This document shows positions 1 to 31,900 of a stretch of 64,000 bases of DNA, in pieces. The notes beneath the pieces are model-generated. The model had not been told where the DNA came from, made no database searches, and was given only the letters and a program-made list of their open reading frames with translations. This stretch comes from a virus. How positions within the stretch are numbered: position 1 is the stretch's first letter; each line of letters begins with the position of its first letter. The position numbers and the translations under genes are program-made. The stretch is taken from positions 2,331 to 66,330 of IMG/VR virus record IMGVR_UViG_3300044846_002605, one strand, 5' to 3'.

Positions 1-3000
1 AACAACAATTGGAGCTTTTACTGCATTACCCATTCTGTGTTTAATAATATCAGCTTTCATCTTATAAAGTGCCTGCTCTAAAGCAGCTGACAATGGTGAA
101 TTTCCAATTGCAATTTGTCCTTTTGATGAAACTAATTCATTTGCAAATTGAATTTTATACTTGATGTTGCGGTTAAGCTCTGTGATAATTTTGTCATAAG
201 CAACAGCGGTTCCTTTTTCAAATTTTTCTTTTTCAGTTAAACTATCAAACCATTTGTTTTCTCTGTCATCATTAAACAGTTTTCCAACTAAATCTTTTGC
301 TCCTAAAGTACTAGCAGTTACTACTGGGCTATTAATATCATAGTTCAAATCTTCAAAAGAAGAAGTAGATTTTCTCATCTGATAATATTTTCCAATCGCA
401 GCATAAACAGGTACTTTTACATAACCTTGTTCTTCTAAATAATTTACAGCCATCTGATCCATTCCATTGGCAGTTCCAACATTAAATATTTTTACACCGG
501 CTTTAATTGCTTTATCAATGTTTGGCTTATGGTATGAATTAAAAGTGTTGTCTAAAGCAATTTGGAACTCTTCAATTGAAACATTTTTTATTCTGTTTGC
601 AAATATTCCACTACCAAATACCCAAACTACATCTGTAGATTTGAAACGTGTGCCTTTTTCCGCCAGTTTCCCAGGATATTTTGCTGTTAACTCATCAACA
701 TAACTCTGACTAGAAGATTTAGCGTTAGGGTTCACTATTGTTGCTTGTCCAATTGCCATTGTAGATGCATTTGCCATAGCTTCATCTTTAACTGAATGAA
801 CAGGCATAAGCTTTAATCCTAAACCGCCTATTGACAAGAATCCTTTTTTAGCGGATTTAGATTTATATTCTAGTGTTGGAAAATCCCCTGAGTTGTTTAT
901 TCCAAAGTAATCTAATAGCAACTTATCAAATTCACTTTGATTTTGATCTGTAGGAACAACCAGTTTCTGATTAAGAATTGCTAATTTTTTGTCTTTAATT
1001 GACTCAGCAAATTCTTCAGGAGTGTATTCTCCTTCTTCATCAAAAAACAAACCTGCTGTTAAAGCCAATGTGTCTTTAGGTAATCCAACCAATGAACTCT
1101 TAATAGAAACATTATTAAATGAAAGCAATGTTTCTGGAGTAGCTGTAGTTTTACCTAATGCCAAATTATTGACTTGATAATTGTAACCTCTTACACGCAT
1201 TCTATAATTGTTTTCAAGCATGTTAATAAATGACTCTTTAAATTGGCCAAGAAGTTGTAAATCTGGCACAATTGGTTCATTTTCTTTGTTAAGGTTATTT
1301 AATTCAGCAGCTTTGATGTTGTTATCAATTTGATTTAACTCATTGATAACTCTTCCAATACCAATTCCATTGTCAATAGTTTCATGCAAATGTTCAGCAT
1401 CAATAATTTTACCTAAGTCATATTGCGACCTGCGGTTTAATCCTGTTTGCATCATAGCAATGTGATTAAACAAACCAAAAAATTCTGCAATTTCTGGACG
1501 CGAATCATTTCTAAGATTAGCTAAGTTTTCTTTATACTGTTTTCTTAAATTAACATCAGAAATGTCAGGCAAGTACATGTTTGATTTTTTGCTTTTCTTA
1601 TCATTGTTAAATTTCATATCTCTGATAAGAGCATATTTTTCAACCAGCTCTGGATTTTCCTGCTTGAATCTTTTAAACATGTTGGCTACACTAGTAGGTC
1701 CGGTAAAGAAAGAATTATGATTTCTTGAATTGTAAAGAGCTATCTTTTGTTTTAGATACTCCGTTGGATATTTCTTTTTTGCACCATCCAAAAAGTAATA
1801 ATCTTTTTCTAATTGCTCCGTTGGAATACCATCTAGTTTTTGATATTCAATTTTGAATCTTACATACTGGTCTAAGTTTTTAAAATTGCTTTGGACATAT
1901 TTTAATTCCAACTCAGGGTTGTTAATATCATTACCTAATAATGCTCCACCAAAAGATACAGTTTTATTTTCTTCATCTATGGTAAATGGAGCATTTGGAT
2001 CTGAAAGATTAGGCTTAAACGTGTATCCACCATAAGTACCTTTTTTAAACAAGGAGTTTTGATACAAGAACCAGATAAAATCATTTTTAAAATCTGTTCT
2101 TAAAACTACATCAGAAGTACCTTTTGGTTTATGATCCATAATCTCTTTGTCCAATGACACTTTAACCAGTGCCGGATTATCTCTTAAACTAAAGTATCTT
2201 TCAAAAATGTCAACTAAAAATTGATCATTATCGAATTGACCAACTGGGCTATTTTTAATACCCTCACTTCCAAACCAAGCTTGAGGTACATAAGTTTCTC
2301 TTGATTTAAATTCTTTGATGTCATCAATTCTTTTTTGAGCTTCAGAAATTGTAGCAATTTTGTTAGTATCAAAACGAGTAAGTTGCTGAAATTTGGAAAC
2401 ATCACTAGCCATTTTTTCAATGTGAATATATTCTGCTAAAGCTTCAAGCTGTCTTTTATCAATTGTGCTTTGACCAACAAGTTCTCTTAACTCATTTTCA
2501 GTAAAGCTTTCTGTATTCCTATTAGCTATGCTTTTGTAGTTAAATGATTCATACCCCAAAACCGCAAATAATTCTGAGTGATTATTGAATATCATTTCTT
2601 GAGCTTTTGCATTCACCCTTGAATTATTGACAATAGGATTTACCTCTGGATCTAAATCAAGCGTAGAATAAACACCACTTAATTCTTTTTTGTACTGGTT
2701 ATATTCCATTACCAAAGGCGTAGATGAAAGATAAGTCGCACTTTCCAAACTTACACCTGCCATAATCATAAATAGCAATGTAGGCGTATTTTGTTTGTTA
2801 CCTTGCATGTTGAATATCCAGGCATCTTTAGCAACATCCACATAACCGTTAATCATCTGAGATAATAAATCTGAAATAGATTGGTTCTTAACATTGTTAG
2901 CAATACCAAGAGCAACATGCTCACCTAAAGCAGAAGTAAGTTTGTTGTGATCTAATTTAAAAGTGTAATCCTTAAATTTATTTACCACATTTTGAGCTTC

Positions 3001-6000
3001 TGTGATTGTCTTTTCATTTGGCATTTGCTTTTTCAAAGAAATCAATTCTTTTTGTGCATCTGCTGGCAAAGAATCACCGTGTTTTTCTCTTAATTCTTCA
3101 ATCTTTAAATTAATTTCTGAAGCAAGAGCTAAAACTTGTATTTGCTTATCAAATTCAGCTTGTTTTTTAGCAGAAACCGCATTTAACTTAGCACCAAATG
3201 TTTGAAACATTGCATAGTAAGTTGCTGTTACAGCTGCTATTCCAAGCGAATCCATACCAACAGAGTTCTCTTGGTGCTTCAACAAGTTATATTCATAGTC
3301 AAAGATTGTGGTAGGAGAAACACCATCAGTGCTGTCATCATTGATTCTTTCGTATTTGTTAAAGCGTGTAGCACCATCTCTTTTTCTAATTGCTTTTTCC
3401 ATTTCCTGAGCAATTGGTAAAGCGACATCTGTAGAGTTAGTAGTGATTAAGTCTTTAATGTTTGAAGGGAGCGTAATTTTTTCAGTAAACAATGCAAGCA
3501 TCTCATTTTCTAATCCTTTGATGGACTTGCCATAAATCTTTCTTTGAATTTCTTCTCTGGCTGCATCAAGTTGAGATAATTTAGATTTTTCTGCATCAAT
3601 TAAACTTTGATTGTAATTGTAAAAATCAGTTGCTAATTCGGCACCCAATTCATCAAACATAATTCTTTTAATTTCTGCTTCTTGGAACTCAATTAGTTCA
3701 TTTACCTGTTCTAGTTGCTCAGTGTACTGAGTAATGAACTTTTGACGTTGTTTAAATGAAACATTTTTAAATTTCCATAAACCATTTTCTGCTGCATTCA
3801 AATAACCATTTAATTCTCTTCTTGTTTCATAAAGATCTTTTTCTAATTTTTGTTGATCCTGAATTTGAGCTTTAACATCTGCAGCTATTTCATTACTTTG
3901 CTCCCAAAACAACTCACGGTCCTGATACAAAGTATCTATTCTTTCCTGAACAGCCTTTAGTTGCTGTGTATATTTATCTTTTTCCTTATACAACTCTTCA
4001 ACTGATTCTTTTACATCAGCTCTGTATTGTTGCAACTCGACTTTATTCCCAATCTTAACAATGTTTGGGAACTGAGTAAACAATTTATCAATATCATAAT
4101 CAGATCCAGCTTTAGCAACAATCTCTGCTGGCAAAATAACTATTGGACCAGCCCATTCAGGTAAAAATTCAGCAACTGTAATTGACTCCAATGCATTTGG
4201 TCCCTGTGATGGAATACGATCACCTGCAATTTGTAAAAACTGAGCATGCTTAGCATTCCATTCTTTATTGCGGATTGACTCATTCAATCTATTCAAAGAT
4301 GCATTGTAATTCAATACAGATTTACCATCTTTATCTTTTTCATAAACTGCAATTTTCTTACCATCAAAGTGATCAAGATACAAAAGCTTTTTAAATCCGC
4401 CCTGAAGTGAAATTTTCACCTCCATGCTTTTTACAATCCAACTTTTTGTGTCTTCTGTAAGAACCGGATTTCCATTTTTATCAGTTATGTGATAAAAAGA
4501 AAGGCCATTAGAACCATAATTAAAGATGTCTGCATCAGTTGGATTTTCAAGTTTAGCAAATTTAGCAGCGCGTTCTTTGTTCTCAAACATTGTTCCTGGT
4601 ACTTGAACTAAAGCTTCACCATTTACATTAAGCGAGCGTAGTTTTTTATCAGCCAATGTCATTAATATAGCCTCAATCTTTTCACTATACATAGACAATG
4701 AAAAATCAAGAGTTTCTGCATTTTTGGATACACTGATGATATAATCAATATCATCTGAAAGCATGTCATTGCTTTTCATTTGTTTTTCCAAATAATCCAC
4801 AAGCTTTTTAGGGCTACCTGTTAATTTTCCTGAAGCGTCATAAGTTAAACCTAAGTCATCAATTAACTCTTGTTTAAGATGAGTTTGTATTTTTGAAATT
4901 ACAACTTCATATCTTTTGTACCAATCATAATTTTTAGATGCGGCTCTTTTCTTTGACTCAGATAAAGCTTTCCACTTTTGAGTTCTTTCTGCTTCAGATA
5001 AATCTGTTTTATAATCTGTAGGGATTTGTTCTTCATCAAACAAACCAAGAGTAATCATCTTTCTTTTCTGCGTAGGCAAAGTAATTTTTCCTTTGTATCC
5101 CGGAGCTAAATAAATCTGATTTTTTAAATACTTTGAGTGGATTTGATTTACAGTAAACTGTACATCATTTGTTTTTCTTTCATCATCATAAAACTCATCA
5201 AACTTTGCAGTTGGCTCCATCCTTTTGGATTTTTTATCCATTGCCAATTCCACTTTAGAGATAGATGACAATTTAGATCCTGACTCCATGGTAATGTAAT
5301 CTACACCCTGCTCCATCATTTTTTCATGAAGATCTTGTAATGGAGTACCAGCTATAAGATCAGGAATCAAAGGCATCAAAGAGTACTTGTGGAACGCCAT
5401 CATTTGCAAGTTAAATGCAGCATCTGCATTATTTACTTGACCATAGTATTGAAACTTTCTTACAGGAAAAGTTACTTTGCGATCTTGATCAGTAAGAGGT
5501 GTGCCGTCAAGCATTTTTTTATAAACTGCATCTTGAGCATCAGACCATTCACCACAAGCAAGATTTAAAATACGGTACATGTCAAATGAAATCCAACCAG
5601 CACCATCTGCTTCTTTCATTTTGTTTTTAGTACCATAATCTTTTGTATCAATCAGTTCATTCCACTGTTTCAAATACACCGATGCAGTTTTCTTTTCTTG
5701 GATTACTCCAGAATTTATGTATCCTGAATAAGTACGGCCTGTTTGTTTTTGATTATGATTTTCTGCAAAACCAAATGCTTTAAAGCTTGGTTTGTTTACA
5801 TAACTCAAAAATGCTGAGTCATTAGCAAATATTTTACCAGTTGAAATTAAACCGGCAATACGCTTGTGATAACCTTCACCTTTAACATCATGAATTGCTG
5901 CATCACCAATAAACAGTGTAGCAAAGTTTGCATTTTGAATAAAGTTATTGATAACAAATGTTTTAAACATTCGCTGTCTTGTAACATCTACTTCTTCATC

Positions 6001-9000
6001 AGCAGTTTTTTTGTAATCTGCAAGAAGATTATCAGAAATAGTAAGCTGTTTATTTTTTCTGTTGAATAAACCTGTAGATCTTGTTTCAAAATAATTTTTA
6101 AGCTCTAAGTCAATTTTCTTTTTTAACTCTTTGCTAAGCAATTTATTTAAAACATTTGGATTATTAACATCAGCAACCTGAGATTGAGAAATGTTCAAAG
6201 CTAGTAATTGATCTTTAGTAGATTTAGAAAGTATATTTGCAAACATGTAAAATGCTCTACCTCTTTTCAAATAAGCAGCATCAAAAACAATTTCTTTTTC
6301 AGATTCCAAATCCTCCATTGCTTCATTAAGCCTGGTTATTCTAACCAATTCCGCTTCTAAATGAAGATAAAACTTATCATACAAAAGTGTAGTATTTTTA
6401 TCAATGTCGTAAGCAGGAGTAAAAATTTTATTGATGTCTTCTTTAGGAAACTCAAGTTGATTTTTAACAATCTGGCCATTTCTTTTAATTGGCGCATGTG
6501 CTGTTAAAGATGTAGACTTATCAGCAGTTCTTAGAATTTCTTGTTTTCCTTGTAAAGTCAAATCAAAATCAGTAATAAATTTGGCTTTTTCATCAAGCTT
6601 AATTGCACCACTACCTTTATCATCATTTTCAAAAATGATTTTAGATCCAGACAAACTTTCAACGGTGATTTTAAAATTAGAGTTTCTAGTACCGCGGACT
6701 GCCGGGTTAGTAGAATCCAAGTTAAACATATTGATTAACCACGGAGAAGCCGCAGCAAATGGATTAGTCTGAACATTGAATACCTCAAGACCTGATCCAT
6801 TTAAAATTTCATCGTAATGTTTAGCATCATTTAATGCACTCACCATTACACTCAATGAAGAGTTGTATGACTTTTCACTTTGATTTTCACCTTCAGCATT
6901 TTTACCCATGGAACTAGAGTTCTCATCAGAAAACATATACTGAAGTTCTTGCAGTTGTTTAAACCACCCGTTTAATCCAGTTTGAGTAATTTTTTCACCG
7001 TTGGATATGTAATCAAAATCATTGAAAACATCAGCAAGCTGAGTAATTTTTTTGTCTTTTTCTAAAACAGCGGTTTCTCTGTTCATCAAAGACTTTTGAA
7101 TATTGGCAACAATTCCTGGATCAATTCCCAAAGCAGGGCTTCCATTAACTAAAATATCTCTGACAATTGGATCATCAACTAAGTCAATTCCAATTTGATT
7201 TAAAAACTCAAATGGAAGAGCTGCAGCTTTTGTAAGTTTGCCGGTATAAACATCCCCTTCTTTAATATCATCTTTGCTTTCTACCCAAACTTCGCTGTCT
7301 TCAGTTCCAGAAATTAATCCAAATCCTACTTCAGCGTAATCTTCACCTAAATCAAATGCATTTAATGCATATTCACCAGTGTCCCCTATTTCTTCAAAGT
7401 ATCCTGTACCTGTTGAAGAAATATAAACAAAGTTGTCAGACCAATCTTTTCCAACTCTATTTGAAGCAGCTTTAGCTCTTCCAGAACGTGATTCTAACTT
7501 GACAGTTTTGGTTTTAGTTTTATTGTCAGTTGTAACAACCTTTTCAATAATAAACTCTCTTAAAAACAAATCTGTCTTATTCATTACTTGCCAAAATGCC
7601 AACCATGCTTTTTGCTCATCTTGAGTAATATTTGGATTAGTAATGTCACCAAGTTTTGCTAGTATCTGAGCAATCTCAAAATCTTTTTTAGCTGCCTCAA
7701 CAAGCTTTTTATGCATTTCAACTCTATCAGTTGTATTACGCAACACCTTGCTTGTTTTAGCAAGCATTTGTACAAATGGCTGAATTTTTTTAATACCTAG
7801 CGAGTTGACAATAAATGGACCTTTACCGTTATTAGAATGCGCGTGAATAGAACTCAACAATTGTCTTGTTTGAGCATCTGTAGTTTCAGCAAGAGATTGT
7901 TCTGTACCTGTTCTTCCAAATGTATAAGTCAACGCTCTTGTTTCCTCATCTAATGTATCCAAGTAATCTACATCTTCCTGGTTGATTTGAACATTGCTGT
8001 AATTATTCAAAAACAAACCAATTAAGTTTGTATTCTCCTCTGCATCTAAGTAAAGCATTGCATCTTCTGTATTACCAAAAGCCTCAATTGCTTTATTCAA
8101 AGTTTTTAATGCAAAATTATCTTCATCTGTAACAGAAGACTTGATGATGTCCCTTTGTTGAATCAACTTATTTTTAATAAAAGTCAAAGCTGATTCTAAG
8201 ATTTCAGGACTTTTTGCAACAGCAAACATACCGTAACCATTTACAACACCTACTTTCTTTTTAAGCTTTTCAATTTTTTTAAGAACAGCATCATGCTTTT
8301 TAGAACCAACCGGATAATTTGCTGATTCAATTTGTAAAGTAGCAATTTGCTTGTTTACTTTTTTGTCAAATACACCACTAGTTTTAAAATCAATGAACTC
8401 ACTCATTAATGACTGCATTGATTCCATCAAAACATTAACTTCTTCTAATGAAAAATCAGTATCTTGATATTCAGAAATGCCTTCAGATTTAATATCTTTA
8501 AGCATTTGCTTGTAAGCCTTTGCGTGTCTATCAATTGTTTCTTCTGAAACATTTGCTCTATTTACTCCAGCTGCAATATCTGCTTTTATTCTTTCTTTTG
8601 CTAATTCAGCATCTAAAGGCATCAATTTATACTGAATGTTTGATTCAGGCAGTGCTTCTTTAATAGCTTGAATAAAAGGTCTTCTTTTTTCTTTAGTTAA
8701 GTTTGTTGTATCAAAAATAATCTTCTTGCCATTTTTTATAGCCTGTATTGTTCTTAATGCAGCTTCCTTATAAATCTCTTCATCTTTAGATTTATTATTC
8801 ATGTCACCAGTAAATTCAATTCTCATTTCATCTGGTGAAATAACTTCAAAATCATTATTTGCATTAACTGATTTAATCCATGTTGATTTACCACTGCCAG
8901 ATGTACCAATTGTGAGTATAACATCAGCCGGTGTAGTAGCATTAATTTCAGATGATTTGTACAAAGCAGTTTTTGTAGCCTGCGGATTAAATTTACTTAC

Positions 9001-11394
9001 ATCAATGTTTCCTTCATACAAAGCATTAAACATGGTATTAACAACACTTGCGCTTTTATTAAGAGCAATTGCCTCATTGAATGTCATGTTTTTACCAAAC
9101 ATGCCTTCAAGCATATTCAAGACTTTATCAAAGAACTGCTTTATTCTTACAGATAGTTTTGACTTGCCGCGATTCATTGAATACTCTCTGAATTTTTCAG
9201 CTAGATATTCTTCAATTTCTAAATCTGTGGCAGTTGCAAAAGCTACTGTCTTTGCTTTACCCAGCACAGTTACTTTAAATGTTCCAGGAGTTTTAGCAAT
9301 TTCAGAATACATTGCCTTTCTCTCAGACTCAGTTAAGATGGCTTGAGTAAATGCGTGAAATGCTTCGTGATAAATATCTGTGTTGTTAGATCCAAGATAA
9401 AGATTGATTGAGCTATTCACAAACTCAGCAACAAAACTAGGTCCTTTTTCATGAATTTTATTTCTAAGTGTTTCATTTAAATTCAGGACTTTAAATAACG
9501 GATGAGTTTTAAACCAATTCATAGCCGCTTCTTTTTGCGCCTCAGTTGGTTCCGTTTCCATATTAGTTTCTGCTAAAGTTCTAAAGAAAACATCATCATC
9601 TATTTCATCTTCACCTACTTCTAAATCAGTAACATCTTTAGCAGTAACACCTAATGCTAGGAATGTAGAATAACCGCGTAGTTCATTATTTGAATTGGTG
9701 ACAATAGTTGTGTTTGTATTATCAAGGATATGCTGTCTAATGCTTTTATTACCCAATGAAATCACATTGTCTTCAATTGAAACAGGAACATTTATTACAG
9801 CATCAACATCTGTTACATCTTTAATCCTTAAATTTCTTTTGGCACCAGTTGTAATATACACCTTACCATCTTTGCCATAAAACAATTGGTTTATATCTGT
9901 AGTTTTATCAAATGATTCAAATGGTACAACATTAGTAAACTTAGTAGAATACTTGTATAGTTCAAAAGTTCTAGTTGTAAAATAGTCTTTAAGTGCTTGG
10001 CGAATTGTTTCAGCATTTTCAGGAATAGCTTCAATTTTATGATTATTGATAATCATAAAATATGACAACTTTCTTTTATTAGTTTCAGCATCCAGCTCTC
10101 TTTTAATCATATAAAGAAACTTACCCGCTTCCTTTTTATGAAAATGATAAATAGCTTCTTGTCTTTCACCAGAATCCATATCAGATTGATATTCTGCTCC
10201 AGTGTTACGCTTTGTTCCTTTCTTTTGCAGTTTAGGTTCAGTAATCAACTTTGTCAAAATATCCAATTCTTCATCAGAAATATCCGCCAATGAATTTTCA
10301 TACATTGGTTTTTCCTCTGGCATTGCAGTAGTTCCTAATAAAGGAACATGCATTACTGCAATGGTTTGGTTGTTTGTTTTCTTAACAATAATTGGAACCT
10401 GATCAACATTTGCAATAGTGTTCATTTGAGTTTTCTTGTGGATGTTTTCCTCCACAGTACCCATAGAACTATTTTGAATATTAATTGAAAAAGTAACCGC
10501 CTCTCCAGAAGCATGTTTCTTTTTCATTTGTTCTATAAGATCAAGATAGCCATTTACTTCTTGTTCTGTTTGTAAAGTAGCTTGTTGTAAAGACATACCT
10601 CTTGACATCAAAGAAACTGTTCGTTCTTTAATCCAAAAGTTCAAATCATACTTACTTTGCTTAAATGTAAATACGGGAGTTGTCCCATCTTCATCAATTT
10701 TGTTGTCAACAAATCTTACAATTTTTCCTGTAGAATCAACCGGCACCAAAACATAAGCATCTGGGTTTGTATCTTTGTTAGTATTTAAAACTTGATTTAC
10801 ATTTTGCAATTCGCGTTGCTGTACAAGTTTTAACTGTAAACCGTCAGCATTTTCTGAATTAATGATGGATCTTTGTACACCAAATTCAAATTCTTTTTCC
10901 GGATCTGTTACATTACCTCTGTACCCCACACCCTCTTCATAAACCATTTCCTGATTTGCAGTTTTAAACAAATCCAAAGTAATAGCATTAAACACCATAG
11001 CTGGTGCCGCAGGAATAACCACAGTTGATTTTCCAATTATCTGTCCTAACTTATCAATTACTTTTTGGAAATCCTTTTTATTCTTTGACTGAGATGCTTC
11101 ATAGATTTCCGCGCTCAATTTATTTAAAGCTCCTAGCACATTTGGGTTACTCGCAGAAGGTGTTTCGCCCATATATTGCTTAACCATTTGTGGTGCTATA
11201 GATAAGTGCTGTAGGATCAACTCTCGGTTTCTAGTTTCAGATAAACCAGTATTGCTAAAATCAGAAATTGCCTTATCAAACAATCTGTTTAATAAGGCAT
11301 TAGCTGAAATGTCATTTGTAAATTGGTTTGGAATCTCTTTTTTAAAATATGCACTAAACAATTTTATAGACTCCGGAGTAATACAAACATTCAT
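1..11394 (-). CDS. Giant virion-packaged DNA-dependent RNA polymerase polyprotein, crAss-like two-barrel type (at least 3798 aa, 3' end beyond window)
   Basis: ATG at 11392-11394 one base after the previous TAA, translating MNVCITPESIKLF. The frame is still open at position 1 and the track lists no stop-terminated ORF in this frame. Motifs read by hand: HEAFH (9355-9369), GTSGSGKST (8881-8907), EADGAGWISFDMYR (about 5575-5615), DRIPSQG (about 4200-4222), AGSDYDIDKL (DYDID at 4087-4101). The last matches the DFDID metal-binding loop of crAss-like virion RNAPs such as phi14:2 gp66. Confidence 0.92.
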   Translation of the reverse strand, partial: MNVCITPESIKLFSAYFKKEIPNQFTNDISANALLNRLFDKAISDFSNTGLSETRNRELILQHLSIAPQMVKQYMGETPSASNPNVLGALNKLSAEIYEASQSKNKKDFQKVIDKLGQIIGKSTVVIPAAPAMVFNAITLDLFKTANQEMVYEEGVGYRGNVTDPEKEFEFGVQRSIINSENADGLQLKLVQQRELQNVNQVLNTNKDTNPDAYVLVPVDSTGKIVRFVDNKIDEDGTTPVFTFKQSKYDLNFWIKERTVSLMSRGMSLQQATLQTEQEVNGYLDLIEQMKKKHASGEAVTFSINIQNSSMGTVEENIHKKTQMNTIANVDQVPIIVKKTNNQTIAVMHVPLLGTTAMPEEKPMYENSLADISDEELDILTKLITEPKLQKKGTKRNTGAEYQSDMDSGERQEAIYHFHKKEAGKFLYMIKRELDAETNKRKLSYFMIINNHKIEAIPENAETIRQALKDYFTTRTFELYKYSTKFTNVVPFESFDKTTDINQLFYGKDGKVYITTGAKRNLRIKDVTDVDAVINVPVSIEDNVISLGNKSIRQHILDNTNTTIVTNSNNELRGYSTFLALGVTAKDVTDLEVGEDEIDDDVFFRTLAETNMETEPTEAQKEAAMNWFKTHPLFKVLNLNETLRNKIHEKGPSFVAEFVNSSINLYLGSNNTDIYHEAFHAFTQAILTESERKAMYSEIAKTPGTFKVTVLGKAKTVAFATATDLEIEEYLAEKFREYSMNRGKSKLSVRIKQFFDKVLNMLEGMFGKNMTFNEAIALNKSASVVNTMFNALYEGNIDVSKFNPQATKTALYKSSEINATTPADVILTIGTSGSGKSTWIKSVNANNDFEVISPDEMRIEFTGDMNNKSKDEEIYKEAALRTIQAIKNGKKIIFDTTNLTKEKRRPFIQAIKEALPESNIQYKLMPLDAELAKERIKADIAAGVNRANVSEETIDRHAKAYKQMLKDIKSEGISEYQDTDFSLEEVNVLMESMQSLMSEFIDFKTSGVFDKKVNKQIATLQIESANYPVGSKKHDAVLKKIEKLKKKVGVVNGYGMFAVAKSPEILESALTFIKNKLIQQRDIIKSSVTDEDNFALKTLNKAIEAFGNTEDAMLYLDAEENTNLIGLFLNNYSNVQINQEDVDYLDTLDEETRALTYTFGRTGTEQSLAETTDAQTRQLLSSIHAHSNNGKGPFIVNSLGIKKIQPFVQMLAKTSKVLRNTTDRVEMHKKLVEAAKKDFEIAQILAKLGDITNPNITQDEQKAWLAFWQVMNKTDLFLREFIIEKVVTTDNKTKTKTVKLESRSGRAKAASNRVGKDWSDNFVYISSTGTGYFEEIGDTGEYALNAFDLGEDYAEVGFGLISGTEDSEVWVESKDDIKEGDVYTGKLTKAAALPFEFLNQIGIDLVDDPIVRDILVNGSPALGIDPGIVANIQKSLMNRETAVLEKDKKITQLADVFNDFDYISNGEKITQTGLNGWFKQLQELQYMFSDENSSSMGKNAEGENQSEKSYNSSLSVMVSALNDAKHYDEILNGSGLEVFNVQTNPFAAASPWLINMFNLDSTNPAVRGTRNSNFKITVESLSGSKIIFENDDKGSGAIKLDEKAKFITDFDLTLQGKQEILRTADKSTSLTAHAPIKRNGQIVKNQLEFPKEDINKIFTPAYDIDKNTTLLYDKFYLHLEAELVRITRLNEAMEDLESEKEIVFDAAYLKRGRAFYMFANILSKSTKDQLLALNISQSQVADVNNPNVLNKLLSKELKKKIDLELKNYFETRSTGLFNRKNKQLTISDNLLADYKKTADEEVDVTRQRMFKTFVINNFIQNANFATLFIGDAAIHDVKGEGYHKRIAGLISTGKIFANDSAFLSYVNKPSFKAFGFAENHNQKQTGRTYSGYINSGVIQEKKTASVYLKQWNELIDTKDYGTKNKMKEADGAGWISFDMYRILNLACGEWSDAQDAVYKKMLDGTPLTDQDRKVTFPVRKFQYYGQVNNADAAFNLQMMAFHKYSLMPLIPDLIAGTPLQDLHEKMMEQGVDYITMESGSKLSSISKVELAMDKKSKRMEPTAKFDEFYDDERKTNDVQFTVNQIHSKYLKNQIYLAPGYKGKITLPTQKRKMITLGLFDEEQIPTDYKTDLSEAERTQKWKALSESKKRAASKNYDWYKRYEVVISKIQTHLKQELIDDLGLTYDASGKLTGSPKKLVDYLEKQMKSNDMLSDDIDYIISVSKNAETLDFSLSMYSEKIEAILMTLADKKLRSLNVNGEALVQVPGTMFENKERAAKFAKLENPTDADIFNYGSNGLSFYHITDKNGNPVLTEDTKSWIVKSMEVKISLQGGFKKLLYLDHFDGKKIAVYEKDKDGKSVLNYNASLNRLNESIRNKEWNAKHAQFLQIAGDRIPSQGPNALESITVAEFLPEWAGPIVILPAEIVAKAGSDYDIDKLFTQFPNIVKIGNKVELQQYRADVKESVEELYKEKDKYTQQLKAVQERIDTLYQDRELFWEQSNEIAADVKAQIQDQQKLEKDLYETRRELNGYLNAAENGLWKFKNVSFKQRQKFITQYTEQLEQVNELIEFQEAEIKRIMFDELGAELATDFYNYNQSLIDAEKSKLSQLDAAREEIQRKIYGKSIKGLENEMLALFTEKITLPSNIKDLITTNSTDVALPIAQEMEKAIRKRDGATRFNKYERINDDSTDGVSPTTIFDYEYNLLKHQENSVGMDSLGIAAVTATYYAMFQTFGAKLNAVSAKKQAEFDKQIQVLALASEINLKIEELREKHGDSLPADAQKELISLKKQMPNEKTITEAQNVVNKFKDYTFKLDHNKLTSALGEHVALGIANNVKNQSISDLLSQMINGYVDVAKDAWIFNMQGNKQNTPTLLFMIMAGVSLESATYLSSTPLVMEYNQYKKELSGVYSTLDLDPEVNPIVNNSRVNAKAQEMIFNNHSELFAVLGYESFNYKSIANRNTESFTENELRELVGQSTIDKRQLEALAEYIHIEKMASDVSKFQQLTRFDTNKIATISEAQKRIDDIKEFKSRETYVPQAWFGSEGIKNSPVGQFDNDQFLVDIFERYFSLRDNPALVKVSLDKEIMDHKPKGTSDVVLRTDFKNDFIWFLYQNSLFKKGTYGGYTFKPNLSDPNAPFTIDEENKTVSFGGALLGNDINNPELELKYVQSNFKNLDQYVRFKIEYQKLDGIPTEQLEKDYYFLDGAKKKYPTEYLKQKIALYNSRNHNSFFTGPTSVANMFKRFKQENPELVEKYALIRDMKFNNDKKSKKSNMYLPDISDVNLRKQYKENLANLRNDSRPEIAEFFGLFNHIAMMQTGLNRRSQYDLGKIIDAEHLHETIDNGIGIGRVINELNQIDNNIKAAELNNLNKENEPIVPDLQLLGQFKESFINMLENNYRMRVRGYNYQVNNLALGKTTATPETLLSFNNVSIKSSLVGLPKDTLALTAGLFFDEEGEYTPEEFAESIKDKKLAILNQKLVVPTDQNQSEFDKLLLDYFGINNSGDFPTLEYKSKSAKKGFLSIGGLGLKLMPVHSVKDEAMANASTMAIGQATIVNPNAKSSSQSYVDELTAKYPGKLAEKGTRFKSTDVVWVFGSGIFANRIKNVSIEEFQIALDNTFNSYHKPNIDKAIKAGVKIFNVGTANGMDQMAVNYLEEQGYVKVPVYAAIGKYYQMRKSTSSFEDLNYDINSPVVTASTLGAKDLVGKLFNDDRENKWFDSLTEKEKFEKGTAVAYDKIITELNRNIKYKIQFANELVSSKGQIAIGNSPLSAALEQALYKMKADIIKHRMGNAVKAPIVV

Positions 11395-11395
11395 A

Positions 11396-14300
11396 TTATT
11401 TACATTTTGTTAACTGCTCAAGAATTTGTGAATTTAAATCAGCATTTTCAAGCTTTTCAAATTCAGCTACACTAGCTGTAAAATTATTAAAAATATCCTG
11501 ATATGCCTCTTTAATATAATCAATTTCTTGGTCATTAACAACTGTATCCAAGTTTAATTTTGTATATTCTTGACCTTCTTCAAACACATCTGTAGATTTA
11601 AAAAGTTGCTCCATAGGTAAAGTTTGAACTTCACCTGTAGTAATGTCAACCAAATCCACAGTTTTATCCGCCATGTTGTATGAAAAAATTTGCATTGGGA
11701 CTTCACCAATTAAAACAGACTGTCCAATAAACGCACCTCGGCCTAACCTCTTCATTAACCTGTCATTCAAAAAGTTTCTTTGCGGTAATGTAAATTGATT
11801 GAAAAGATCAGTATTGGTAATCCTATAAGCAGCCAAAAACAAGTTTAAATTTTTGTCATTTTCTAAAGCCTCAATCTGTTTAATTAAGAAAGGAACAAAT
11901 GGATAAGCATCCCCCATTTTTCTTAGTTCTTCTAAGAGTTCTGCTTCAGTTTTATCAACAGCAGTTTGTTTTGCTTGTATCTCATTTAAATATTCCAAAA
12001 AGTCATCAGTGCTCATGTCTTCTTCCGGCATTTCAACTTCTTGATTTGCTGCATCATTTGCTGCTTCAGGATCTGATACATCATAAAGCCCGTCTTCTAC
12101 AGCTTGATCAAATAAAAGTTGCTGAGCTGGAGTCAATGAAGAATAATCAAGCGTAGATAAATTAACCTGTCCTGTAGTAATTTTAAATTCAAGGGACTTA
12201 GTGTACTCTTCAAAATCAGCAGCCGCTTTTTCAGCTTCTTTAGTTCCAATCCAGTTTTCAAATTCCATTTCAGATTCATACTGGCCGTAATCTTGTTCTT
12301 CTTGAAGACTTCTAATTCTTTCTGCTATAGATGTAACCATATCAGAGATAGTCCTGTAATTAGCAAAAATTTCATTAACCGCTTCTTGCATATAAACATT
12401 TGCATCTTGTATATCACTTGCAAAGTCAGCAGCTGCAGCATCACCTACACCATCAGCAGTTTTGTATTTAGATTTGTTTGAAATAAAACTTTTGTAAAAA
12501 GCAATTTCTCCTTTTCCTCTTGCAACATTTTTGGTAATAAAATCCGGATGTACTCTATTTTCTGGATTAGAAAACCAATCCGCAACCAACGCTTCTTGAA
12601 ACAAAGGATCTGTAACCATCACCCCTGAATCATAAATAAACTCGCGAATGGTCATTTTATCCTGAGCTAATTTATTTTTAGGCTGAGCTCTCTTAGCTGT
12701 ACTTGCTCTTTCCTCCAGTGTATAAATAGAACCACTTAAAGCATTACTCCTAGCAATAGTAAGTTTAGTTCTAGAATTGTAGAATGCATAGTTTACAGCT
12801 TTAACAACAGATGGAAGCAGAATTCCTTTGTTCATTAACTCAAAGAATAAATTTATAGCTTGGTCTTCAATTTCTTGAGGAGTGCCTTCAAATTTTAAAT
12901 TCTTTTTGTAATTCTCAGCCTGGAATTTAGCATTTTGTACTACTTGATGTATATTAATCAAGAACTGAGTTTCATCTTCTTTTGTTTTTAAAGGTCTGCT
13001 AAATAACTCTTTGTTGTATAACGCAAGTGCCTTCAACTCGGTTGGTGTTAAAGTAAAACTATACTTCTTACCATTATAGGCAACCTTAATAGGTTCTTTA
13101 CTCTTTACATACTTAGATAAAAGACCATAGTTATAAACAGTACTATTCTCAGCCAACTCTTCAAAGATGTCTTTTTGATAACCAAGTACCGCTTCAGCGC
13201 GTTCTTTTGGTTCCAAGCCCTCAAGTTCGTCAGCAAATGTTTCATTAACAACAGCTATTTGTGAGTCTTGCTCAAGTTTTCTTTTTTTCTTGCTTACAAA
13301 AGCAATCACATCAGGAATCTTGAAGCGGAAAGTTTTACTATCATTCAACAAGTTGTCAATCAAATACGTCAAGTCTGCCTTTGTCAAAATGTCAAAGTCT
13401 TCTTTCAATACTTTTTGCAACAATTCACTTACTTGTTCGCGCTCCATAGCATTGATTGGAACAATTGCTTGTTTCCTTGCTCTGCGTCTAGCTCGCGCTT
13501 CTTCTTTCTGTTGATCTAAACGTTGTTGCTTTAATTGCTTTCCTCTTTCTATTTCAGCTGCATTATGTGCAGCAAGTTCTTCATCAGTTAATTCAACTGT
13601 TACTTGTGGTGGAGGTGCAGGTACAAACTCTTCAGGCTCCTGTTCTTTATTATACTCTATAATTGTTCTCAAGAAAGACATATCATTTGCCATCATTTTC
13701 TGAATGGCATCAATTTCTGCCTCTGAAGGTTCAGCATCAGATTTCACCGTGCCGATTTCAATTTTACTCTGCTCGTTAAGTCTTACAGTAAATCCAGGAC
13801 CAATTGAAGCAACAAGTGAATCAAATATATTTCCAAATTGTTCATCCAGCGCATCAACTTCTTCTTCTGGTGCTTGAGCCATTGAGCGATTTAAAGCCTC
13901 CAGTTGTCTTATCTCTGCTTTATACTTACTTCTTATTGCACCAACTGAATTAGCCGCTAAAACCATTCTGTATTGATCAATAAGCCTATTCTGCAATTCA
14001 CCTGGTAAAGAAGCAAAAGGAGTTCTTTCAGTAATAACCAATGTATTATCTATGTTTACTTCTTCTTCTACCGGTGTTTCTACTGCGGTAGTTTCTGTAG
14101 AAACAATTTGAGCTTCACTACCAAACTTTGCATCATACTCAGCTTGAAGATCTTTAAGATCAAGTAAAAGTTGTGATTTTTGTTTATCCAACTTCATTCT
14201 TTTTCTTAACTGCATTTTTGAAGAAGATGCAATTTGCTCATTGACTCTTTTCAAAAGTTCTCTCTTCTGATTAATTTCAGTTTTGAGTTTAGTTTCTGCA

Positions 14301-17300
14301 TCAATTAAATCCTGTTCTTCAGTTTGCACTTCTTCTTCTTGTGCAGGCACATCTTCTTCAGGAGCATCAATCTCAACATCAATTTCTCTTTCAACTTCTT
14401 CTTCAATTTCTTGAGTACTTCTAATGCCAGTAAACAAGTTAGCTTCTTGAGTTTTTAAATCTCTATCAATATCAGCAAAAACAGAACTTCCGTACTTATT
14501 AAATTTTGGATCTTGTCCCTGGTACATTGCTTTAACAAACCACTCATTACCATTAGGGTGTGTGCCTATAGCTAATAATGGAACCCATTCGCCAAGAGAA
14601 GCTGCTGTAGATCCTGTACCTGTAGATTTGTACATCAAGAATTTCACCTTCTTTGTGCCTTGCTGAACAGTTTCTTCACCTTCTTCAGTGATGTCAGTTT
14701 GTTCAGCATTTAATTCATCTTGAAGAGCATTTCTTTGTTTAAGTGTTGATTCTATTTCTGCATCAACATTTGCATCACTTTGATTAGTTTGTTGAGCAGC
14801 TGGACCATTTTTAATTATTGACTCAGCTTGTTCTATAATTTTTCCTGAAGCCTCTTTAGTAGATAATTTACCATTAAAAGTTTTTAAGTTATCTACAATT
14901 GGTTGAGCAATCTGTTCTGCTGTAAAACCTTCTGGAATTTCTATTGTTACAGAAACATATACAGATGGGCGATTAGTATCCACTGTAGTTACAACAGGAA
15001 CTTTAATATTTACAACTCTTTTTCCTTGAGTTGTGTAGCCTTCATCAAATTCGGCCCAATTTTGATTTCTTTTTACACCATACTCATGTCTAAAATCCGG
15101 GTGAGCATCTGAGCTTATTAAATCTTTGGTTGCGTTATTACTTTTGTTTTTAACTAACCATCCGCCAAGACCATCAAAAACTGTATAATTGAGTTCAGAA
15201 GTATTAGTTGTATCTTTTGTTGATTGAACAGCTTTAACAAAATTTTCAAAACCTCTTTTTTCTACTTCAGCTCTAGTAACAACTTTAACCTTACCAAAAA
15301 GAGGTTTGTTCTTTTTTGCTTCAGCTTCTAGTTCTTGTCTTGCCTCATAATAAAAAGTGCTTTGTACAGGTGTTAAATATTGAGAATCAAAAATTTCTTT
15401 TAATGCAACAACATCATTTCTTTTGGCATTGGTGTCAACTGTTGCTTTTCCTGTAGCTGTTTTTTTAGAACTCAGATCCTTTATTTTTGCATCTAAATCA
15501 GCAATTTCTTTTTGTAACTCTGCTACACGCGGATTAGCTTTTTTGTTTTGTATAGCTTTCTTTACAAATACCGGAACTTCAGCTGTAACATCAATGATTA
15601 ATCTTCCACCAACTTGAGCACGGATGTTTCCATAAACCCAATTGGTAATTCTTGCATCATCTAATTCTTTACCAAGATCAACAAGCTTTTGTGTCCATTC
15701 TGCAACAGCCAAATTATTATTGGAAACTACTTCAGGATGTAAAAAATCAGCAAACAACTCTGGATTGTCGTTAGCATTTTCCAAAAACTCAGTGTTTCCA
15801 ACTTCAATAGTGCGCGTAACTTTTTCTTTAACTTTTTGCTTAACTGTTTGTTTTGCAGGTTTAGTTTGCTCATTGAAATATTCTTCAGCTTCAGCTTTAG
15901 TATCAAATGCTTTAATGTTTCCATCTTTGTCAGTTACCTGCCAAACACCTGGAACCACTTCCATCAACTTGAAACCTTTCTTTTCTACAGAACTAACCGG
16001 TTCAGGTTTCTCTTCTTCTTCTACTGCGGTTTCATCTGCTTTTTCATCAATGTTATCAGTAATAGATTCATCTAATGCCATGTTAGCCAAACTGACCGCG
16101 CGTTGTAATACAGAGCCATCAAAAGTCTTATTAAAAGCTTTCATGATTTTAGCCATTAATGACTTCCACAAAGACTCTTTTTTTCCAGATACTGTATCTG
16201 TAACACCGCCCAAAAATGATTGAAATGCAGTATTGTTTAATGACTCAGATAAAAATTCAGCTGTGCTATTAAACAAAGAAATTTTATCCATATCCAGGTT
16301 AGGATACTTTTTAGCAAATGCATCTTTAGCCTGTTGCATTAAATTTTCAACTTCAGTTTGCAAACTTTCGTTTTCTGCTAAGTTGTCATTTAATTTAGCT
16401 TGAGTTAATGCAGAAAGAACAAGTGTTTCAAAGTTTACTGCAACATTTTTGTAATCAGATCCAGCGTATCTTACATCAATTACAAAGACACCATCTTCAT
16501 TTAATGAAATTGGAAACTCTGCATTGTCAACAAACATAATTTTTGGCATAGAGTCAGAAACTTTATCCAACATCTCTTTGTCAATTTGTGTAAGAAAAGT
16601 ACTACTCTTTAATTTTCTGAGCATTCTTTCTAATTGAACCGGATCAGATAAATCAATTTCTTTTCCAAGTTTGATTCCATATTGTCTAAGTAAACCTTTA
16701 ACGGTTCTCTTGTCTTCAGTGTAACGCAAACTGCGTTTAGAACCACCTGACTTATCCTGAACAATTGTTTTACCTGTAAGCCTAGCATAAAATTTAGAAA
16801 TAATATCTTGAGCTTTTTGGTATTCCTCTTTAGACGACTCTTTGTTTGATTCAATGTTGTAAATCTTAGAAGGCATTATTCCTTTGCCAACTAAATCATC
16901 TAATTCATTTAAATCAAAGAAAATACCGGCTTCCTGTAATTCAGTAAGCATTTCGCTTGATGCAGCTTTTTCTTGAAAAGCATACAACTGATTAGCAATA
17001 TGTTTTTCTTTGTTCTTATCCAAATCCGCCATCATTTCTGCATTGCGGTCAATCCACATTTTAGCAGATGTTGGATCTACAAGTGTATTTACAACATCTT
17101 GCAAAGCCTGAGATTCAGTTTTTAAATCTAAGTAGTCAACAATTGCATCAAAAGATTTTCTGCTAATTGCGCGTTTAACCTCTTCAGCTTCTTCTTTGCC
17201 ATAAAACATTCCATACTCTGCATCAATAGAACGGAAGTCATGATATGCTTCAAACAAATCAGAATAAGCGTCTTCAATTTCATCTACAGATGGTTCCTCC

Positions 17301-28981: not shown

Positions 28982-31900
28982 TTATCTGTGAGATAATTGC
29001 TGATTACTTGCAGCCAAACTCACAAGGATTTCTACATTGTTGTTTTTAGTTCTTTTTAAAATTACTCTATTATTAAAATGTCTGAACTTTTTTCTTTGAA
29101 ATTCTTGCTTGTTGTAGTTCAAGTTTACAGGATTCAAATTGCGAATGTAACCATTATCTTCCGTCATCCAAATTCTTTCTTCAGCACCACTGTACTCACC
29201 TCTATCATTTGTTACATCCCAGAATTGATTAAATCTGTACTGTTGCTCTTCTTTAGAAAACAAGATATTGATGTAGTTAGTTTGAATATTTGGGAATGTA
29301 AGCAACAATGGCAAGTTATTCTTTGGTGTAAGATGTAGTTTAAGTAATCCGGAAACTTGTTCTGAATTGTAAACTATAGCCTCATCAAATCCATGATCTA
29401 ATACATGGAAACGGTCATAACAGTTTTGCTCATCATAAACATAACTTTCAATGTAGTATTCAACATTGCGCATAGTTGCTACAGCAAGTTTATTGTCTAA
29501 CTGAAACTCAACTTCAAATGGATAATCCTCACCATAGTAATTACAATATTTGTTACAAACATTGTTGTGTTTCCAAATGCTATTATCCTTAGTTGTAAGG
29601 AATGTATTCTTTGCTCCTAAAGATAAATCTGGATGCCAATCATGGAATGACACAAACTCTTCAATTTTTGGATCATAACTCAAAGTCCATGAACAATCAT
29701 CAAAATAAAGCGGATCCCCTGTTTTGGCAATAAACACACCGTTAATTAAAAACTTAGAACCTCCAATATATTCTACTGTTACCGGCAAGTTTTTCTTTAG
29801 TCTGTAATCTTTCTTACAGAAATAAACCAAACTGTACTCATTGTCATAAATAGTTTGACATCCAATTCCAGCAACAGGATTATCTGTAACAGAATATGTT
29901 GGAAAGTCTTCTAGGAGTTTATACGGCAAGTAAATGTTTAACCAGAATCTATTTCCTTTAAGTGAGATTTCTTTTAATCCACCCGCGTAACAAAATATCT
30001 TACCTTGGTTAAGATTCATCCAGAATACACCGGCTGGCGTATTTAGTACAGACAGTCTACTTTGACATGATCCATATTCATAAGATAACTCAGAGTTTGA
30101 TAATTGCTGTAGTTGTCTTGAAAATAATCTACCATCGCCAATTGTGATATTGGCACCACCTGTTGTTTGCATTTCATCTACACCCGGTAACATTCCCGGT
30201 GCTTGATTTTCAAACAAAATCAGCGCGGCTGTTCTATTAATTGGTTTTATAGATGTTACATTACTTTCATAATCAGCATAATTATTTGGTAAGAATACTC
30301 TCCATTGATCTTTTTTAGCAAGTGAAACATTTTGCGCACCAGCTGCTTGTGGCAATGAATACAGTAATCTTCTTGGGTATTTTGTATAACATGTTTCAGA
30401 TAGCAATGGATTGTAATCTCTAGCCTGCATTACTCCCCATGGAATCTTTTGACTTGCCATAAATGACCATGACAAACTTCTATCAATTTGATAATAGTTG
30501 TCTGCCTTAATCAAGTTCATATTAAATATGGTTTTTAAATCTGAAAGAATTGGATAATGTTTTTTAGCATCTGTGTCTTGCCAGTCACGCATATCTACAT
30601 TAAACTCTGATTCTACAAAGAAATCGCGAACACCTGAATTGAATAAATACATGTATGCTCTTTTCAACAAAAACACACCGTTTTGTCCATTCAATCTATC
30701 AAAACAATGTTTATCACTTGGAGTAACCAAACTTGAAAAGAATGTTGATATTGAACCCGAAGTTATTGCAGTTTGTAAAGCTGCAGGAACACTTTGAACA
30801 AACTCCATTAAATCAAAAGGATCAGTGTCCATCCAAAAGGCTGTCCACTCAAACATTTTTTGCTTATTGTAATTTAAAATAGCACCATCTGGTTGACCAT
30901 TTAACCATTGTTGAAAATAAAACAAAGTGTTTTTTTCAGAGTATTTTCCAATATAAGTATCACCACCAAATAGTACAGGTGAATTAGTTGTTGCTATAGG
31001 TGTTACACATGAAGAAACCAAAAGTTGTCGTATAGATTGCAACTGTCCATATTGATTACGAAGTCTTGTTTTAAGTGCAACATAATGCGAAGAGGCTCTT
31101 CTAGAAAAATTATCAAGATGTCTGTCAGCTGGCATTGTTGAAACTCTAGGTGGTCTAGAAACATCTACTATTGCTCCAGTAATATTTTCAATATTAACAG
31201 GTGTATCAAACATCACAGTTTCATTTCTGTAAATGTGATTAACAATATAATTTGTTGAATAATCTTGTACCCCAGGATTTAAGTATCTAGCATCATTTAT
31301 TCTGCGTCTTCTGTTATTTGCATAAGGCGCGGCAAATTTTTCATACTTACACAATGATTGATATTGTAAAGCAAATTGATGCCATGCACCTAATGACTCT
31401 ATTAACTTAAAAGTTGTATCAGCACCTGCGGCCATGTAACTTAAAAACATTGGATTACCTAATGCCAATAATGCTCCTTTTAATATACCAGGAGCAGCAT
31501 CTTGATCTTTATATGTAATCTCAACAAATCCTGTAGTAACCCCAGTTAATGGAACTTGAGCCGCAGTTCTTGAAGCTGTAAGTAGTCCTGTTTGAGCACC
31601 ACCTACTGCTGATGCTACACCAATATTTTGTCCACTTAAAGCATCGGCCATACCTTGTACACCAACTGTACCCAAAGCCGCAGTTTCTGCCGCAGTTAAT
31701 ACTGCTCCCAATGGAACAACGTTACCTGAAGATGTTGATGAACCAGCAAAAATTGGATCATTATCAATTTGGTATCCGCGGTATTTTGCTTCACGAGAAC
31801 CAATCATCTTAGTAATTGCATAACCAAATCCAACTACAATTCCTGTAATAAAAGATACATCAGTTATAAATTTATGACGCGGATGATTTTCTGGTTCAAC

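Follow-up and report, generated by a model that had tools for sequence, protein, structure and literature searches.

A polynucleotide kinase-type cassette in a giant crAss-like virion RNA polymerase homologue

What is a polynucleotide kinase (PNK)-type domain doing in a giant phage protein that also resembles an RNA polymerase (RNAP), and on which ends would it act? The question is raised by a 64,000-nucleotide stretch of viral DNA (the window), which corresponds to bases 2331-66330 of the IMG/VR record IMGVR_UViG_3300044846_002605, a linear sequence of 66,330 bases rated 55% complete. On its minus strand, the window carries at 1..11394 a giant open reading frame (ORF) which is uninterrupted over 3798 codons, leaves the window at its start and extends 1176 bases further, to base 1155 of the record, for a total of 4189 codons. 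Within this frame lies a self-contained PNK-type P-loop kinase domain (8470..8940, minus strand; residues 819-975), here called the kinase cassette, whose limits (157 residues) were set by comparison with its nearest relative, the IMG/VR locus L004. A sequence-only reading of the window had located a T4 PNK-like kinase domain at 8470-8930; the place was right, while the module proved to be 10 bases longer. The peptide quoted in that reading was found on the minus strand as residues 824-959 of the ORF starting at 11394, and the translation of 8425-8967 on this strand is free of stops from ...PADVILTIGTSGSGKSTW... through ...EETIDRH....

The identity of the domain is supported by sequence, profile and fold comparisons. 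In Pfam, AAA_33 matches residues 825-962 (E 2.8e-17; 63.8 bits for a cut-off of 27; profile positions 1-141 of 143) and is the sole domain found in the first 3798 residues of the protein, with weaker Zeta_toxin, AAA_18 and AAA_17 matches overlapping the same stretch. PHROG 505, 'polynucleotide kinase', matches the segment at 4.2e-16, and its best NCBIfam match is TIGR04075, the kinase part of bacterial Pnkp (1.9e-11). Searched as a single sequence against the PDB, it retrieves the Pnkp kinase of Clostridium thermocellum (CthPnk, 1.3e-6), Capnocytophaga Pnkp1 (2.4e-4) and T4 PNK (2e-3). With a family profile built from 31 members, whose alignment was also used to assess residue conservation, the PDB matches are CthPnk (3.7e-20, profile positions 6-156 of 159), Pnkp1 (7.1e-17), PSTK (3.7e-11), T4 PNK (3.4e-10) and mammalian PNKP (8.5e-7). 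The AlphaFold (AF2) model of the kinase is a compact domain with disordered tails on both sides (predicted local distance difference test, pLDDT, 84.2; predicted template modelling score, pTM, 0.78). When this model was compared with the PDB using Foldseek, the top six matches were all CthPnk (template modelling (TM) scores 0.69-0.75, root-mean-square deviations 2.1-2.5), followed by T4 PNK (1.3e-6), mammalian PNKP, Pnkp1 and PSTK. The profile searches against AAA_33 and PNK families proposed by the sequence-only reading, together with the superposition of the model on CthPnk, thus bear out its claim of a PNK-family P-loop kinase. Its choice of T4 PNK as nearest kin does not stand, the bacterial Pnkp kinase (CthPnk, then Capnocytophaga Pnkp1) being closer by sequence, profile and fold. 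As judged from sequence and predicted structure, residues 819-975 are an intact polynucleotide 5'-kinase family domain whose nearest counterpart is the kinase module of bacterial Pnkp.

Equivalents of all the CthPnk residues reported to be essential are found in the kinase. On the minus strand, the P-loop GTSGSGKST (8881..8907; G830-T838, including K836 and S837) aligns with 15-GSSGSGKST-23 of CthPnk, K836 and S837 matching Lys21 and Ser22. The DEMR motif (8821..8832) provides D855, at the general-base position, and R858, aligned with Asp38 and Arg41, and the DTTN motif (8701..8712) provides D895 and T897, aligned with Asp78 and Thr80. The lid, RIKADIAAGVNR (8557..8592), contributes R935 and R946, aligned with Arg116 and Arg123. 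Among the 31 family members, there is no variation at K836, D855, R858, D895 and R935 and almost none at S837, T897 and R946; in the P-loop, this pattern reads as two invariant glycines and an invariant lysine with a nearly invariant serine. According to the available part of the CthPnk study (PMC3902929), Lys21, Ser22, Asp38 and Arg41 are essential, the acceptor's first phosphodiester is anchored by Thr80 and Arg41, the base of the nucleoside triphosphate (NTP) has Arg116 stacked on it, and Arg120 and Arg123 are redundant gamma-phosphate contacts; this part assigns no role to Asp78, the first residue of the DATN stretch. The T4 counterparts are Asp35 and Arg38 for Asp38 and Arg41, and Thr86 for Thr80. 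The P-loop, DxxR and TN motifs named in the sequence-only reading are therefore all present. The lid, which it had described as altered, is changed at the Arg120 position but keeps the equivalents of Arg116 and Arg123, so it is not lost. With this catalytic set, the cassette is very likely an active PNK-type kinase.

Among known systems, the best match is the kinase of bacterial Pnkp (CthPnk, PDB 4gp6, 4jst and 4mde; Capnocytophaga gingivalis Pnkp1, 4xrp). The P-loops of CthPnk and of the cassette differ at one position and both domains comprise about 150-170 residues, while identity is only 25-26% and the lid here is 4 residues longer and without an Arg120 equivalent. The bacterial Pnkp kinase shares its polypeptide with a metallophosphoesterase and a ligase-like domain and acts together with Hen1, whereas the kinase of the window stands alone in a phage giant protein. 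The phage enzyme T4 PseT (PDB 1ly1, 1ltq and 2ia5) belongs to the same kinase family, with the same fold, and uses the same Asp/Arg/Thr acceptor-site logic (PMC3902929, available part). It differs in having its own 3'-phosphatase domain and an RNA ligase as partner, neither of which was found for the cassette in five kinase-carrying records. T4 Pnkp is made after infection and, to our knowledge, has not been reported as virion cargo; the cassette, unlike it, sits in a presumed virion protein.

This presumption comes from the rest of the polypeptide. With residues 1900-2800 as query, tblastn returned 82 phage records, crAss-like and many with 'putative RNA polymerase' genes, among them phi14:2 g066, 'catalytic RNA polymerase subunit'. 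BLASTP against phi14:2 gave three colinear matches, residues 1896-2046, 2387-2471 and 2840-3011 aligning with g066 919-1070, 1316-1403 and 1599-1748 (E values 2e-10 to 7e-6), and these mark a gp66-like RNAP body at 1195..8469 (minus strand; about residues 976-3400, limits approximate). The sole DxDxD of the protein, DYDID (4087..4101, minus strand; residues 2432-2436), is the counterpart of 1361-DFDID-1365 in gp66, both loops having I at position 4. In the available part of the gp66 report (bioRxiv 10.1101/2020.03.07.982082), DFDID is the catalytic motif and gp66, after delivery, transcribes the early genes. Both proteins are encoded at the same place in the genome, behind the tail genes; the giant ORF of the window is preceded, as in phi14:2, by terminase, portal, major head and tail genes. 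The phi14:2 record annotates g065-g067 as virion proteins proven by tandem mass spectrometry (MS/MS). On the strength of these matches, the giant protein is a homologue of the crAss-like virion RNAP. By homology with phi14:2, we infer that the virion contains this protein and delivers it into the cell along with the DNA, in which case the kinase would be present before any phage gene is expressed.

The sequence-only reading was correct in assigning the kinase to a crAss-like virion RNAP homologue, as the DYDID motif and the three gp66 matches indicate, while its description as embedded in the polymerase holds only in part. Both are in the same protein, but here the cassette occupies the junction between an HExxH module and the gp66-colinear stretch that follows. 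Since residues 976 to 1896 span about the same length as gp66 residues 1-919, the kinase would lie just ahead of the gp66-like body and not within it. It does not belong to the polymerase fold. The 2180 residues of gp66 include no kinase, while the giant protein, with 4189 residues, is longer by about 975 residues at the N terminus, where the HExxH module and the kinase lie, and has additional C-terminal modules. Its domain order is an N-terminal region without assignment, the HExxH module, the kinase, the gp66-like RNAP body and C-terminal add-ons including DUF7831. Profile A2 had no significant match in phi14:2 g065-g068, and megablast of the giant gene against GenBank phages returned no match.

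Comparison with L004 shows how sharply the kinase is delimited. Residues 1-818 align with L004 residues 6-820 at 70% identity and residues 976-3913 with L004 821-3759 at 71% identity; exactly the 157 residues between these flanks are absent from L004, and no kinase was found anywhere in its 64.7-kb record. The N-terminal linker of the cassette (residues 810-823; 8926..8967, minus strand), in which the L004 indel boundary falls, is modelled with low confidence (pLDDT below 50 at model residues 1-5 and 7-9, mean 47 over the first ten), and pLDDT is also below 50 in the C-terminal linker (residues 980-990, model residues 171-181; 8425..8457, minus strand). An intein or intron was considered and rejected. 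Inteins need Cys/Ser/Thr and His-Asn at their junctions, and here the frame is continuous across junctions (N/ATT and ISE/YQD, or EYQ/DTD in an equivalent gap placement, the slash marking the joint) without intein residues. The cassette and the giant gene are close in GC content (0.314 vs 0.326; 0.159 vs 0.227 at third codon positions, GC3), and composition gives no sign of recent arrival.

The kinase changes place among other relatives. At nine other IMG/VR loci, it is 68-76% identical to the cassette (52-74% in the best BLASTP segments of the same kinases). In four of them, L005, L007, L010 and L011, the ORF also aligns to the RNAP body, at just 23-30% identity. Relative to the DxDxD of the same ORF, the kinase lies upstream in L005 and downstream in L007, L010, L011 and L012, while L006, L008 and L009 have it in ORFs without DxDxD. 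The kinase copy of L013 (record G009, 31127-31586) is in two pieces separated by an in-frame TAA, which may reflect a decaying cassette or an assembly error. Taken together, these comparisons make it highly probable that the kinase is a portable cassette, inserted in frame into a linker slot of a giant polyvalent protein.

The cassette is under purifying selection, the ratio of nonsynonymous to synonymous substitution rates (dN/dS) being 0.11-0.22 in all 21 pairs among seven cassettes. Both of its junctions are supported by independent assemblies: in the lake-water run X2, contigs with 0 mismatches cover 8095-8542 and 8514-9163, and a variant in run X4, with 61 differences in 670 bases, covers 8481-9150. 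No joint skipping the cassette was seen in the contigs of runs X2-X5, the uncovered parts in X3 and X5 being uninformative. Near-identical copies of 7900-9500 occur in contigs of 13 lake-water, freshwater or aquatic metagenome runs from 11 studies, which cover a share of 0.21-1.00 of this segment; no RNA run was among those listed as containing it. Among the four runs that were aligned, X2 and X3 show 0 mismatches, and X4 also contains a variant diverged by about 9%. The phage lineage thus appears widespread in fresh water.

How far the cassette has spread was addressed by a profile scan of 1.84 billion cluster representatives and by a separate word-based search. The former returned 2564 relatives at E <= 1e-3, 102 of them at E <= 1e-30; the closest representatives are 55-76% identical, carry the kinase at any position and occur in proteins of up to 5234 residues. 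The word-based search found 112 carriers, 320-2000 residues long. When a close copy was defined as at least 50% identity over at least 100 residues, 142 of the 215 proteins from both searches had one (50-77% identical). Sorted into classes by BLASTP, these 142 comprise 14 RNAP-like, 22 gp65-like and 6 gp67-like proteins, 3 matching another part of these proteins, and 97 unclassified; the survey of crAss-like RNAPs suggested in the sequence-only reading therefore does recover the insert in other polymerase-like proteins. A second IMG/VR scan added at least 7 further close loci. The cassette is no commoner in RNAP-like carriers than in gp65-like ones, and what the carriers have in common is that they are cargo, not that they are polymerases. 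On a kinase tree of 39 classed carriers, 14 changes of host-protein class are needed, compared with a mean of 16.5 after shuffling, 85 of 1000 shuffles being as low; host-protein class is not clustered on the tree.

Some copies are placed shortly after the catalytic DxDxD of the polymerase. In L045, P0150 and L054, the P-loop follows DxDxD by 32-46 residues, inside the polymerase core region: it lies at ORF residue 1469 in L045 (DFDID at 1423) and at 3339 in L054 (DxDxD at 3303), while in P0150 the kinase runs from 2453 (DFDVD at 2426). The L054 kinase is only 36% identical to that of the window. From these positions, the slot just past DxDxD looks like a recurrent insertion site within the polymerase core region.

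Other searches recovered more distant relatives of the kinase. A profile scan of genome contigs, made with one P-loop pattern, gave at least 25 loci and no close copy among the matches listed, where the best identity is 37% over part of the domain and higher values are reached only across 30-60 residues at the P-loop. Among GenBank phages, 98 records have a kinase match, all below 60% identity and at most 41% among the matches listed. No crAss-like phage was present among 90 GenBank rows listed (30 and 60, overlapping) or by organism tallies. These relatives are mostly annotated as polynucleotide kinase, several of them beside an RNA ligase or fused to a phosphatase, and two 'uncultured' matches are phages of 635-642 kb. 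In large Bacillus phages (H96, H97, H102 and H109), stand-alone relatives overlap or abut genes annotated as RNA ligase, unlike the cassette of crAss-like phages, which is an orphan.

The architecture of the carriers recalls polyvalent proteins, a set of giant multi-domain proteins which, in the available part of their description (Iyer, Burroughs, Anand, de Souza and Aravind, 2017; PMC5512222), combine unrelated enzymes, an HExxH module and shuffled effectors, are presumed to be delivered together with DNA, and provide a precedent in an ART domain fused to N4-like virion RNAPs. The protein of the window shares this trait, joining an RNAP core, kinase, DUF7831 and HExxH module in one polypeptide, with the kinase gained, lost or relocated among relatives. 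The pattern is further indicated by the partner domains of other carriers, in which the kinase is joined with ART-PolyVal, NADAR, DUF7831, a PD-(D/E)XK nuclease, GNAT or a RecD-like helicase. In the available part of that work, the P-loop kinase of the polyvalent set is zeta-toxin-like and its other kinase is of the Ser/Thr/Tyr type, and no PNK-type kinase or crAss-like phage is mentioned. In the literature searched, with supplementary tables and subscription papers outside its scope, no account of a kinase in RNAPs or cargo proteins of crAss-like phages was found; this agrees with the sequence-only reading, which knew of no characterized RNAP-PNK fusion. Of the two circumstances which that reading considered would remove novelty, one holds, as the insert recurs widely in crAss-like giant proteins from metagenomes, while the other, a description in print, apparently does not. 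Injected polyvalent proteins are known in general, as are virion RNAPs with fused effectors, and the PNK-type cassette in crAss-like giant proteins is apparently undescribed.

What, then, would such a kinase do? The reading which probably accounts best for these data is that of an orphan 5'-OH polynucleotide kinase cassette, part of a polyvalent and probably ejected cargo protein and acting as an early end-modifying effector. An effector of this kind is the most likely because the kinase comes without phosphatase or ligase. Among five kinase-carrying records, three of them rated 100% complete, RNA_ligase (PF09414) and RtcB (PF01139) were each found in none, nor were Metallophos (PF00149), PNK3P (PF08645) and 2H (PF13563), while the control genomes were detected in these searches. 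PF09511 (T4 Rnl1) also gave no match in the five records, a result made uninformative by a silent control. Domain scans of the giant protein itself revealed no 3' end-healing or ligase domain. The RNA ligase that the sequence-only reading proposed to look for elsewhere in the genome was thus not recovered with PF09414 or PF01139 in any of the five records; the window's own record is rated only 55% complete. The idea of tRNA or RNA end repair put forward in that reading lacks the partners, no ligase or 3' end-healing family being found in these records. It is therefore unlikely that the kinase is one arm of a phage-encoded repair pathway.

A polynucleotide acceptor is slightly more likely than not. 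With NTP and Mg2+, the acceptor (an RNA or DNA end, or else a 3'-phosphorylated nucleoside) would be held by R858 and T897, D855 would deprotonate its 5'-OH, and K836 and the S837-bound Mg would stabilize the gamma phosphate under transfer. The kinase would in this way turn 5'-OH ends, left by host or phage nucleases, into 5'-phosphate ends during the first minutes of infection, the purpose being either counter-defence or the steering of RNA or DNA fate. A more specific proposal, which is doubtful, is that freshwater crAss-like phages bring in a pre-made orphan kinase, one among several exchangeable cassettes in their cargo proteins, and that it acts on 5'-OH ends within these first minutes. 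Breaks made by host HEPN or anticodon RNases, or by DNases generating 5'-OH ends, might thereby become ligatable for host 5'-phosphate-dependent ligases; alternatively, cleaved host RNAs might become unrepairable by RtcB and be marked for 5'-phosphate-dependent decay. Because the P-loop lies so shortly after DxDxD in L045, P0150 and L054, these sequences also leave open a direct coupling to transcription, for instance by modifying what the polymerase itself makes at the 5' end.

Several observations weigh against the reading as an orphan end-modifying effector in an injected protein. Its biological role is the weakest step, an orphan 5'-kinase having no obvious single target. Packaging and injection are argued entirely from homology with phi14:2. 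Acceptor specificity is not readable from homology alone, because PSTK, which phosphorylates aminoacyl-tRNA and not a 5'-OH, is the third-best profile relative. In the active site, the lid has its 4-residue insertion and a non-Arg residue at the Arg120 position, the residues Val129 and His133 of CthPnk, which pack on the first base, are only partly matched (by T and H), and the H at the His133 position is not conserved among distant family members. The cassette is dispensable, being absent in L004 and split by a stop in L013; the five short two-copy families of repeats in 8400-9010 do not bracket it, and the 6-base TCTGAA microhomology at both borders (SEIN, SEYQ) is one that chance could give. 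As to the carriers, 97 of 142 could not be placed in a crAss-like protein class, many coming from short contigs, and with only 1 of 36 branches of the kinase tree well supported, the mixing of host classes may partly reflect poor resolution.

Other functions were weighed on the same evidence. The kinase shares its family with T4 PNK and bacterial Pnkp, and its stand-alone relatives in GenBank phages are annotated as polynucleotide kinase, several by an RNA ligase or fused to a 3'-phosphatase, so one might expect a T4-style RNA repair in which the injected enzyme heals the 5' ends of tRNAs or RNAs cut by anticodon nucleases or HEPN RNases, for religation. Breaks with 2',3'-cyclic-phosphate and 5'-OH ends, however, also need a 3' end-healing enzyme and a ligase, and RNA_ligase, RtcB, Metallophos, PNK3P and 2H are each missing from all five carrier records, the giant protein having no second domain of the repair kind either. 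Moreover, the host RtcB route requires a 5'-OH, so that the kinase would block this route and not help it; T4-style repair is quite unlikely as a result. A small-molecule kinase, phosphorylating a free nucleoside, a nucleotide or an immune signal in order to neutralize defence or to feed the polymerase, would fit the breadth of AAA_33 and the weaker fold matches, which include adenylate, UMP/CMP and adenosine 5'-phosphosulfate (APS) kinases. T4 PNK itself accepts 3'-nucleoside monophosphates (3'-NMPs), and the partner cassettes ART-PolyVal and NADAR act on NAD and ADP-ribose chemistry. This function is nevertheless unlikely, given that the profile search reaches 3.7e-20 for polynucleotide kinases and 9.3e-4 or worse for nucleotide kinases and that the equivalents of the strand-gripping Arg41 and Thr80 are invariant or nearly so.

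Two further explanations are very improbable. The domain might be a zeta-toxin-like kinase that phosphorylates UDP-N-acetylglucosamine (UDP-GlcNAc) and weakens the cell wall at DNA entry, a role suggested for P-loop kinases in polyvalent proteins; zeta-toxin-like kinases are reported in such proteins and fused to MuF (PMC5512222, available part). Pfam Zeta_toxin does match in six of eight relatives scanned, with 22.7-37.8 bits, all above the curated cut-off of 22.3, the remaining two having no match at E <= 1e-4. The match in the window's kinase is weak, its 16.9 bits falling below this cut-off, and in all six relatives AAA_33 scores higher than Zeta_toxin (39-69 vs 23-38 bits). No zeta or PezT chain appeared in 47 PDB sequences at E <= 0.01, nor among the Foldseek matches listed, and about 150 residues is the size of a minimal PNK kinase module. 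The cassette might instead be a passenger without catalytic role (a spacer, a regulator of the polymerase that binds ATP, or an insertion in decay), as its position in a linker slot, its absence from L004 and its broken copy in one record would allow. Such a passenger would hardly be expected to keep all catalytic residues invariant at a dN/dS of 0.11-0.22, or to remain 50-77% identical across carriers whose RNAP bodies, where alignable, are only 23-30% identical; its GC content (0.314 against 0.326 for the gene) also argues against a fresh unselected arrival.

The surroundings of the cassette in the giant protein contain other modules. The HExxH...EE module, which adjoins the kinase upstream (8941..9537, minus strand), is zincin-like by motif only, with HEAFH at 9355-9369 and EE at 9208-9213. 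The H, E and H and two downstream E residues are invariant in six aligned sequences of the module, including a paralogue (HEFCH) which opens the next gene downstream (L002:2-1150, minus strand). In phi14:2 g065-g068, the only HExxH is in g065. The module has no Pfam match, and its profile gave nothing below E 0.4 against PDB sequences. Its AF2 model is poor (pLDDT 49.9), the best Z score in a fold search being 4.4, and lethal-factor-like, PPEP-3, ArdC and neprilysin entries appear at Z 2.7-3.5 amid unrelated proteins.

Near the C terminus, outside the window, DUF7831 covers residues 3915-4024 (L002:1653-1982, minus strand; Pfam E 2.1e-36). A second module swap with L004 occurs at this domain, where residues 3914-4151 face L004 3760-3867. 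DUF7831 was considered as a functional partner of the kinase and dropped, the two being together in only 5 of 215 carriers, in L045 and in this protein. The segment at 420-800 (minus strand; residues about 3530-3660), described as SLOG-like in an earlier reading, had no Pfam match at E <= 0.01 when residues 3300-4189 were scanned. The gp67 position is occupied by a neighbouring gene for a 2772-residue protein (11396-19714, minus strand), which has no Pfam or PHROG match and shares about 25% identity with the N-terminal parts of the kinase carriers P0006, P0011, P0042 and L039.

Virion-delivered enzymes act ahead of phage gene reading and can therefore reveal which host barriers come first. PNK-type kinases are familiar from repair after infection, where they are paired with a phosphatase and a ligase, while here such a kinase is found alone, conserved and repeatedly moved. 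Its moves among three giant cargo proteins of an abundant uncultured phage group would point to a different use of 5'-end phosphorylation in the conflict between phage and host. Pairs of phages which are about 70% identical and differ by exactly this module offer a natural experiment, and the occupied slots mark where the crAss-type polymerase tolerates insertion of whole domains. Should the cassette turn out to be an ordinary end-healing kinase, it would still help to annotate hundreds of giant proteins that have no annotation.

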